Position numbers and translations under genes: made by a program. Below are positions 62,496 through 63,484 of a DNA stretch of 64,000 bases, one piece after another. The DNA lies in IMG/VR virus record IMGVR_UViG_3300025889_000071, one strand, 5' to 3'. A model generated the notes under the pieces. The model was given only the letters and a program-made list of their open reading frames with translations. It was not told where the DNA came from and ran no database searches. This DNA comes from a virus. Taxonomy: Duplodnaviria > Caudoviricetes. Within the stretch, counting starts at the first letter, position 1, and each line of letters opens with the position of its first letter.

Positions 62496-62537
62496 GTATC
62501 AAATGATACACAACAAAAGTACTTGACTAAATAAGGT
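62496..62537 (+). promoter_or_regulatory. NtcA-consensus box with class II spacing
   Basis: GTA-TCAAATGA-TAC, then exactly 22 nt, then TAAGGT (TAN3T). Confidence 0.6.
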
Positions 62538-62551
62538 ATAAGGTCTATAAT
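62523..62551 (+). promoter_or_regulatory. sigma70 promoter
   Basis: TTGACT-17-TATAAT. Confidence 0.8.
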
Positions 62552-62559
62552 AGACCTGT

Positions 62560-62843
62560 CGTTCATCCAAGAGGCAGTCGCTGTGCACATAGCATAGAAA
62601 GACACATCTGGACGCAAGTAAGTCGCGGAACGGAGCGTTCATCCTATGATTGAGTTACTACTATTAGCTAATTTACATAGTCCTCCAAACATGACTTGTC
62701 AGCAAGTTAGAGAGGTGGCAGAAACCGTACTGGATTCTGATATGTCTCAACAAGATAAGCAAAGATTCTTATCTCGTTTGTTTGGACAGCATATGATGCT
62801 AAAGTGTCTTAAGAAATAGGACGCACACGACTGAAGGAACGGG
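62560..62843 (+). ncRNA. glutamine-riboswitch-like RNA (glnA/Downstream-peptide class) with ORF in P3 loop
   Basis: CGTTC/GAACG P1, TCC/GGA P2, CGCAAGTA, AGTCG/CGACT P3, GAAG. Confidence 0.65.
62646..62819 (+). CDS. 57-aa ORF nested in riboswitch-like RNA
   Basis: MIELLLLANLHSPPNMTCQQ...MLKCLKK; GGAG RBS at 62632. Confidence 0.6.
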   Translation: MIELLLLANLHSPPNMTCQQVREVAETVLDSDMSQQDKQRFLSRLFGQHMMLKCLKK

Positions 62844-62879
62844 AGATTAAATTCACCCTAGTATTTCAGGAGAAACACA

Positions 62880-63047
62880 ATGAATACACTTCTCATGATC
62901 AAGAAGCAGATCGACAAAGCATCTGCACTTCACGACGCTCAAATTGCTCATACTGCATATCGTGGTGTTGAGTATAACGTATGTGGTCATGAACCACATG
63001 AGACTCACGGTACATTCTGCTATCGTGGTCATACTTATAACAAGTGA
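62880..63047 (+). CDS. DUF4278-like small protein (55 aa)
   Basis: Two YRG motifs (AYRGVEY, CYRGHTY); AGGAG RBS. Confidence 0.7.
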   Translation: MNTLLMIKKQIDKASALHDAQIAHTAYRGVEYNVCGHEPHETHGTFCYRGHTYNK

Positions 63048-63070
63048 ATTACTTGTATTAGAATGCATAG

Positions 63071-63105
63071 GAGAGGTTGACTACCTCTCTTTTTTTGTCT
63101 ATAAT
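63071..63105 (+). terminator. terminator with nested sigma70 promoter
   Basis: GAGAGGT/ACCTCTC plus T run; TTGACT-17-TATAAT. Confidence 0.7.
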
Positions 63106-63126: not shown

Positions 63127-63300
63127 ATGGATAGAGATAAATTAAAACTCATCATCAAAAACATGGAACTCCTTCTCGATTCTTTGAAAGCAGAAGTGCT
63201 TTCTGAACCTGAATCGTACTTACAGGGAGAATACTTAAATTATCCACAAATTACTGACTATGATGAGGTATTTGATGATGACGATGGATACCCCGATTAA
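63127..63300 (+). CDS. conserved small cyanophage protein
   Basis: MDRDKLKLIIKNMELLLDSLKAEV..DDDDGYPD. Confidence 0.65.
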   Translation: MDRDKLKLIIKNMELLLDSLKAEVLSEPESYLQGEYLNYPQITDYDEVFDDDDGYPD

Positions 63301-63304
63301 AAGT

Positions 63305-63484
63305 ATGTACGAAGAATTAAATTGCTTCGAAGAAGCCCTTAAACATTTCGGAACTAGAGTAGAGTTTGCTATTGCTATGGAGATGGGTAGAAAACTGACT
63401 CCAGAAGAAGCATATCAAATTATCAAAACTGAACTAAAAGCATTAAAATCCTGTCGTAAGAAATTTAAAAAAGATGAATGTTAG
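63305..63484 (+). CDS. conserved hypothetical protein
   Basis: MYEELNCFEEALKHFGTRVE. Confidence 0.7.
   Translation: MYEELNCFEEALKHFGTRVEFAIAMEMGRKLTPEEAYQIIKTELKALKSCRKKFKKDEC

Follow-up and report, generated by a model that had tools for sequence, protein, structure and literature searches.

The window analyzed here, a 64,000-nt stretch of DNA, is a piece of a T4-like cyanomyovirus that carries tRNA genes, a PhotoRC-II element, and thyX. Within it lies a two-gene unit in which two small open reading frames, ORF1 and ORF2, are interlaced with an RNA leader and bounded by a promoter and an intrinsic terminator. The region around ORF2 matches 419 cyanophage records, nearly all of which are Synechococcus phages, and the layout of the regulatory unit was derived from 83 loci. 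The features of the unit and its surroundings are the following:

62496..62509, plus strand: NtcA-type box, the GTA-N8-TAC palindrome GTATCAAATGATAC, 13 nt upstream of the -35 hexamer
62523..62551, plus strand: sigma-70 promoter TTGACT-17-TATAAT, with 11/12 consensus matches
62560..62633, plus strand: candidate aptamer core 1, composed of CGUUCA, a variable hairpin UCC...GGA, CGCAAGUAAGUCGC, and GGAACGG
62636..62647, plus strand: 5' half of candidate aptamer core 2, composed of CGUUCA and UCCUAU, which overlaps the ORF1 start codon
62646..62819, plus strand: ORF1, a two-cysteine protein of 57 aa encoded inside the long-range stem of aptamer core 2
62816..62869, plus strand: 3' half of candidate aptamer core 2, composed of AUAGGA, CGCACACGA, CUGAA, GGAACGG, an inner hairpin, and UUCAG abutting the Shine-Dalgarno sequence
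62868..62872, plus strand: Shine-Dalgarno sequence AGGAG of ORF2, 7 nt before the ATG and conserved in the alignment
62880..63047, plus strand: ORF2, a phage short DUF4278 peptide of 55 aa (phrog_545)
63069..63098, plus strand: intrinsic terminator that closes the two-gene unit, with a 9-bp stem (hairpin 63069-63091) and then a T run
63077..63105: second sigma-70 promoter, TTGACT-17-TATAAT, matching the consensus
63127..63300 and 63260..63484: two small ORFs between ORF2 and thyX, assigned to phrog_878 and to DUF7219/phrog_765, respectively

The earlier note had described a 55-aa product with two YRG motifs at 62880-63047, and the translation agrees with that description, with the motifs at residues 27-29 and 48-50. 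Each motif belongs to a YRG-x-x-Y repeat (Y27-R28-G29..Y32 and Y48-R49-G50..Y53), which is invariant in an alignment of 30 homologs. The repeats are spaced about 20 residues apart and are preceded by an N-terminal helix with the pattern MNTL..I..QI.KA.ALHDAQI. Using tblastn, we found a full-length ORF2 homolog with 60-90% identity in 371 phage records, where the annotation is always hypothetical, and a protein search returned 530 protein clusters as homologs. ORF2 matches phrog_545 (E 1e-32), whose entries state no function and make no mention of DUF4278 or nitrogen, and corresponds to the same gene as Syn9 gp198 and S-RIM2 SWRG_00173. An AlphaFold2 model of low to moderate confidence (pLDDT 67.7) features a helix at residues 3-27 and a beta-hairpin at residues 45-54, joined by a poorly defined linker, and a sequence search of the PDB with the ORF2 family profile returned no match.

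ORF2 is a real gene that is under purifying selection. Among 52 distinct coding sequences taken from the 83 loci, the median dN/dS is 0.13, and the variable columns comprise 35 first, 25 second, and all 55 third codon positions. Across the 30 diverse homologs, 17 residues are invariant, including both YRG motifs, H18, D19, H43, and G44, and C47 is near-invariant in the phage clade. This pattern contradicts the idea that ORF2 is a chance frame or a translated leader with an irrelevant product, as do its own Shine-Dalgarno sequence, the terminator directly behind it, and its homologs in cellular genomes. The very short length of the frame, the lack of a Pfam match above threshold, and the missing annotation of the homolog in Syn19 would each be compatible with a non-functional frame, which we nevertheless consider extremely improbable. 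In Syn19 the homolog (L001:1501-1668; GU071106.1 161800-161964) was passed over in favor of an overlapping 54-codon frame, Syn19_188 ('T4-LIKE GC: 984'), which is probably a mis-call.

The earlier note had also called the product DUF4278-like and named a search with Pfam PF14105 as one way to check it. That search aligned ORF2 residues 25-53 with profile positions 26-57 at E = 5.9e-4, but the score of 20.6 bits is under the curated gathering score of 25.3, so the assignment does not stand at the Pfam threshold. It does hold by homology: PF14105 is matched at E < 0.01 by 29 of the 30 phage homologs (best 4.9e-6), and the phage family extends by profile search to host peptides. For this extension, a profile of the 30 phage homologs was searched against 1.84 billion protein representatives, which yielded 143 proteins. 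Beyond the phage clade, the profile finds peptides of 54-68 aa at E 1e-9 to 1e-4, which share the pattern MN.L.LI....K...L..AQ....KAYRGV.Y...(~14)...L.YRG..Y. One cluster of these is named 'DUF4278 domain-containing protein [Cyanobium sp.]', resides on cellular contigs of up to 365 kb, and adjoins phoX. All 18 host-like members match PF14105, and an hhalign comparison of the phage set with the host-like set gave 99.6% probability and 39% identity over the whole length (56 columns). Because the host-like set was drawn from matches to the phage profile and includes at least one member (P0244) that is itself phage-borne, the E-values of the library search are the independent statistic.

Among 61 genomes of the picocyanobacterial family, 23 were matched by the profile at E <= 0.01, and the full-length matches sit in the larger genomes, which are Synechococcus- or Cyanobium-sized. 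A Glutamine-II riboswitch scoring 34-58 bits lies directly upstream of the gene in 7 of the 10 best host matches and also at loci L088 and L090. Together, the homology to the host peptides and their riboswitch setting suggest that ORF2 is the phage counterpart of the genes called IF17-like by Klahn et al. 2018 (PMC6212724). Like ORF2, the short DUF4278 peptides of marine Synechococcus, Prochlorococcus, and Cyanobium (e.g., MED4 PMM1846/yfr6; PMC6212724) are 54-63 aa long, begin with the helix MN.L.LI....K...L..AQ, contain two YRG..Y motifs in collinear full-length homology, and have an NtcA-type box at the promoter. They are encoded just downstream of a type 2 glutamine riboswitch (Glutamine-II, RF01704, formerly called Downstream-peptide), where the phage gene has candidate aptamer cores. 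In Prochlorococcus, the increase in expression of a DUF4278 gene that follows the addition of ammonium is brought about by a DP/type-2 riboswitch (PMC6212724). In Synechococcus WH7803, only a few host genes are up-regulated very early in cyanopodovirus infection, and these include the DUF4278 gene SYNWH7803_RS10040 together with its hypothetical neighbor RS10045 (PMC7885011).

The phage clade also departs from the host forms in several respects. Its members share at most about 40% identity with the short host peptides, are less basic, and have their own invariant H18, D19, H43, and G44 and near-invariant C47. Furthermore, the candidate phage aptamers are divergent relative to those of the host, score below the Rfam cut-offs, and consist of two cores, the second of which closes around an extra ORF, and the phage promoter has the full sigma-70 consensus, unlike the promoters of host loci. 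The low identity and the clade-specific residues suggest that the phage DUF4278 clade is old and distinct and that its target may have diverged from that of the host peptides. Marine picocyanobacteria encode up to nine glutamine-riboswitch-controlled DUF4278 peptides per genome.

We also evaluated the proposal of the earlier note that ORF2 is a glutamine synthetase (GS) regulator, which was based on the GS-inactivating factor IF17. Spelled out as a mechanism, ORF2 would be a phage GS inactivating factor that at high glutamine binds host GS type I in the manner of IF17 and lowers its activity, which would save ATP and glutamate and raise 2-oxoglutarate so that NtcA-driven phage promoters stay active. 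The proposal draws on real similarities. IF17 (GifB) of Synechocystis sp. PCC 6803 and its homologs share the DUF4278 YRG..Y repeats with ORF2, and the control of gifB by NtcA and a glutamine riboswitch parallels the regulatory logic of the phage cassette (PMC6212724). In addition, Klahn et al. put forward, as a conjecture, that the short peptides may inhibit a co-evolved GS (PMC6212724, PMC6316151), and a GS inactivator would fit the proposal that cyanophages gain from high 2-oxoglutarate (PMC3037559).

The architecture of the proteins points the other way. DUF4278 genes were taken for comparison from 20 of 81 cyanobacterial genomes, and the long DUF4278 forms in this sample are about 115-160 aa, start with MKL.YRG, contain three YRG motifs within about 60 residues, and end in either an IF7-like part (L140, L141, L142, L144, L147, L164) or a different helical part. 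Both the phage profile and the profile of the short host peptides align to the YRG repeats of the long forms (residues about 3-65) only. In these 20 genomes, the IF7-like C-terminal part of the IF17-type proteins gave no alignment to either short-peptide profile, and the N-terminal helix of the short peptides found no counterpart in the long forms. Thus, IF17-type proteins (L142, L144, L147) have three YRG motifs followed by an IF7-like region, whereas all 55 aa of ORF2 are taken up by an unrelated helix followed by two YRG motifs, and the IF7-like region is absent. The missing region is the one in which GS binding by IF17 mainly resides: inactivation of GS depends on arginines and on K102 of the C-terminal IF7-like moiety, and the N-terminal DUF4278 moiety is dispensable for inactivation and mainly gives stability (Bolay et al., PMC6316151). 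Earlier physiological work also argued against IF-type control of GS in marine picocyanobacteria (PMC6316151, PMC6212724). Because the GS-acting part of IF17 is absent from ORF2, the published conjecture of GS control is not strengthened by the sequence of this locus, and we consider it doubtful that ORF2 inactivates GS.

The inactivating factors are strongly basic, in contrast to ORF2, which is weakly basic with a net charge of +1 and a pI of 7.9; the medians are +3 for the phage family and +7 for the host-like set. However, strong basic charge was not decisive as a mark of an IF-like protein, as the sets overlap and one confirmed cellular cluster also has a net charge of +1. The second type of tail in the long forms (L143, L146, L148, L149, L160-L163, L165) follows the pattern ..H..NL...LE.R...A...GD..L...LE.E.., and these helical-tail DUF4278 proteins of larger cyanobacteria represent a second, apparently uncharacterized architecture.

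The sigma-70 promoter of the unit recurs at the identical position in many related loci, and the predicted transcript start at about 62558 falls right at the first aptamer. Of 35 distinct promoter regions, 18 have a perfect GTA-N8-TAC no more than 90 nt before aptamer 1, compared with about 0.6 expected from the background density, which corresponds to an enrichment of about 30-fold at this position. Across the whole 64,000-nt window, by contrast, the motif is not enriched (12 versus 8.1 expected). The inner 8 nt of the box vary between lineages. Taken together, these patterns suggest that NtcA input to the cassette is likely, and NtcA sites have been described in cyanomyovirus genomes (Sullivan et al. 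2010, PMC3037559).

The direction of this input is harder to read from the layout. NtcA boxes are centered at about -41.5 for activation and lie over the -10 element or the start site for repression. The box in the window is centered at about -55 from the predicted start, the gap between box and -35 hexamer ranges from 2 to 13 nt across loci, and the box follows the -10 hexamer in some loci (L002 and L061, for instance), with a position between the -10 hexamer and the aptamer in three. Because the position of the box varies relative to the -35 and -10 hexamers, we assign no sign to NtcA control. The sequence TAAGGT (62532-62537), a TAN3T element, lies 22 nt downstream of the box, and an overlapping NtcA-type promoter at this element is possible. 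Published accounts of the sign in host genes disagree: Klahn et al. inferred repression of the MED4 gene by NtcA (PMC6212724), Weinberg et al. 2010 cite down-regulation on nitrogen starvation, and PMM1846 has been placed in the MED4 NtcA iModulon, which is activated by nitrogen deprivation (2026 preprint, bioRxiv 10.64898/2026.04.15.718746).

Downstream of the promoter, the leader contains two divergent glutamine-aptamer cores, which are candidates by their sequence and covarying stems. The cores were recognized by hand and through relatives with shorter hairpins, and both carry the CGUUC:GAACG pairing, CGCA, and GGAACGG (at 62627 in core 1 and 62836 in core 2). The CGUUC:GAACG pairing, which is formed in the MFE fold of core 1, is invariant and therefore uninformative as covariation evidence; covariation is seen instead in the core 1 hairpin and the core 2 long-range stem. 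In core 1, the 3' block is invariant in 4 phages and the hairpin, which has a 41-nt extension in the window, covaries across loci. In core 2, UCCUAU pairs with AUAGGA at 62816-62821, and compensatory variants of this long-range stem are present elsewhere (UCCCAUG/CAUGGGA, GAUUAUG/CAUAAUC, UCUA/UAGA). In register, 86% of cells in the alignment are paired, compared with 36-61% for a partner displaced by 1-3 nt. The block GGACGCAmACGACUGAAGGAACGGG of core 2 is invariant, its fold has a z of -2.46, and its layout is that of the Glutamine-II consensus of host loci, CGCA..CGA-stem-GGAACGG-stem. The ORF1 stop codon falls within the 3' half of core 2. The stem adjoining the Shine-Dalgarno sequence is CUGAA/UUCAG in the window and CUAAA/UUUAG in other phages.

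Rfam searches returned no glutamine riboswitch in the window, either around the locus at E <= 1 or across all 64 kb at gathering thresholds. In relatives with a short hairpin, the core 1 site scored up to 33.6 bits with RF01739 (E 5e-4) and up to 27.3 bits with RF01704. The aptamer scores of the relatives range from 22 to 33.6 bits, always at the same place and all below the cut-offs of 33 and 35, compared with 34-58 bits for host loci. Glutamine riboswitches have been listed as Rfam matches for T4-like cyanophages (PMC9602691, PMC9964418).

The earlier note had placed an NtcA box, an aptamer, a DUF4278-like gene, and a terminator together at this locus, and the box at 62496-62509, two candidate aptamer cores, and the hairpin at 63069-63091 bear this out. 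The combination of NtcA-type box, candidate glutamine aptamers, and terminator is moreover conserved across hundreds of cyanomyoviruses, which is consistent with the nitrogen-sensing cassette that the note proposed. Two bases of the ORF2 Shine-Dalgarno sequence also belong to the 3' strand of the aptamer-2 stem, and because of this partial overlap an OFF switch is conceivable. We also observed that GAACG-GAG-CGUUC (62627-62641) can form a local 5-bp hairpin over the ribosome-binding site of ORF1; this hairpin would compete with both aptamer pairings and is a candidate for a switch that couples the two cores. Loci of the Syn19/Syn9 type (L001:1100-1270, L051, L067, L072, L073, L076, L081) lack a promoter and an obvious CGUUCA immediately ahead of the first GACGCAAGUAAGUCGCGGAACGG block, which is where a further small ORF (Syn19_186, Syn9 gp196) terminates. 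In these loci, core 1 may have its 5' half upstream of Syn19_186/gp196, which would constitute a second gene-in-stem arrangement.

ORF1 is conserved in its own right. Its homologs correspond to phrog_504 and phrog_13397, and the median dN/dS of its 53-aa subfamily is 0.22. In most phages, ORF1 ends in ...PEC.WDAND-stop, and the codons UGG GAC GCA AAC GAC UGA are the invariant aptamer core, which means that a single stretch encodes the end of the protein and its stop codon and also forms the ligand-sensor core. The ORF1 of the window stops instead at UAG (62817-62819), inside the stem. In two IMG/VR contigs (L004:1050-1200 and L008), the ORF2 protein is 98-100% identical to that of the window and is preceded by a different, compact leader, in which two GGAACGG cores are 56 nt apart without ORF1 between them. 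The retention of ORF2 without ORF1 in L004 and L008 indicates that ORF2 can dispense with ORF1, and comparison of these loci suggests that the leader recombines independently of the ORF2 gene.

The relationship between the two genes bears on whether ORF2 acts on the host at all. It could instead have a phage-internal role with ORF1, e.g., as a pair acting on a phage process, with only the leader borrowed from the host; nitrogen would then set the timing, and the peptide would not act on host nitrogen metabolism. Such a role would account for the co-conservation of ORF1 and ORF2 and their interlocking on the mRNA in most loci, for the purifying selection on both, and for the invariant His, Asp, and Cys of the phage clade that are missing from host forms. 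However, the leader is not the sole likeness to the host, as ORF2 is homologous to host peptides along its whole length, and the L004 and L008 lineages keep the ORF2 protein without ORF1. Furthermore, host-like DUF4278 genes are found in two siphoviruses, S-CBS2 and P-SS2, and such a gene on the phage-like contig L090 has no ORF1-like gene called beside it. We regard a phage-internal role as improbable.

We consider it reasonably probable that ORF2 is a phage mimic of the host's glutamine-gated regulatory peptides that acts on a host target. This reading draws on homology and shared regulation; weighing against it are the age and distinctness of the phage clade, the variable position of the NtcA-type box, and the scores of the peptide and the candidate aptamers, which fall short of the Pfam and Rfam cut-offs. 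Under the mimic reading, host RNA polymerase would transcribe the ORF1-ORF2 unit from the consensus sigma-70 promoter, presumably early in infection given the match to the consensus, and the NtcA-type box would let the 2-oxoglutarate status of the host modulate transcription. The two candidate aptamer cores in the mRNA would gate translation, with the second abutting the ribosome-binding site of ORF2, and, by analogy with the host elements, the peptide would be made at high glutamine. The peptide, with its predicted helix and its beta-hairpin bearing the second YRG, would then act in trans by binding the same host protein as the host's own peptides, for which GS is one candidate among several. 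The phage would thereby impose or amplify a 'glutamine-sufficient' response. If so, the virus probably both reads and tampers with the nitrogen status of its host.

Phages are known to have copied a small host regulator in another case, that of phage CP12 (PMC7760959). ORF2 resembles cyanophage CP12 and similar phage-borne small host regulators in that it could redirect host metabolism during infection (PMC7760959). The targets and effect of CP12 are known, and ORF2, unlike CP12, brings a putative metabolite-sensing leader along.

A more specific version of the mimic reading would make ORF2 an effector that takes over the glutamine-sensing output of the host. Here the peptide would be made only at high glutamine and would block assimilation through binding to GS or to a different node of the PII/PipX/NtcA network, such that 2-oxoglutarate stays high and NtcA-dependent phage promoters stay on. 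We consider this full chain of events unlikely. Were it true, ORF2 would be the first case of a phage-encoded, metabolite-gated regulator acting on host nitrogen signaling, and the role of the many host 'IF17-like' peptides would be revealed as well.

As a protein, ORF2 adds one more ordinary member to a family that is known but uncharacterized. Among the papers searched, none ties a cyanophage gene to DUF4278, IF17, or gifB. Its significance lies in the fact that hundreds of T4-like cyanophages (371 records) keep a conserved copy under like control, which suggests that the target of the peptide is worth manipulating for the virus. The phage version (e.g., Syn9 gp198), being compact and genetically tractable, would also help to find the target of the host peptides. 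If GS or the PII/NtcA network turned out to be that target, there would be a direct tie between the supply of nitrogen and how viral infection proceeds in the main primary producers of the ocean.

The earlier note had placed ORF2 just upstream of thyX, which overlooks the terminator, the promoter, and the two small ORFs that intervene before thyX starts at 63474. Because the downstream neighbor is not conserved (talC is the next gene after the cassette in Syn9, Syn19, and S-RIM2), we rejected a functional link to thyX, which is positional only. Hairpin-plus-T-run terminators of different sequence occur at the same place in S-RIM2 and S-SCSM1. In the window, the terminator of the cassette and the second promoter overlap, with the -35 hexamer in the terminator loop, and the same overlap is seen in S-SCSM1.

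Related genes were also observed elsewhere. Host-like DUF4278 genes are present in the siphoviruses S-CBS2 (GU936714.1 70874-71047) and P-SS2 (GQ334450.1 25557-25727), and in L090 (2419-2671), a phage-like contig with a DenV-like gene, a host-like DUF4278 gene lies behind a canonical Glutamine-II riboswitch (50.2 bits). These three cases suggest that cyanophages took up such cassettes more than once. A scan of genome contigs gave only three matches, namely L084 and L086 (NHGE01000043.1, NHGE01000071.1) and L085 (NYWG01000192.1). These contigs belong to MAGs labelled 'Euryarchaeota archaeon TMED129' and 'Verrucomicrobiales bacterium' and contain the ORF1-ORF2 cassette of cyanophages in full, most likely because cyanophage DNA was mis-binned into the MAGs.
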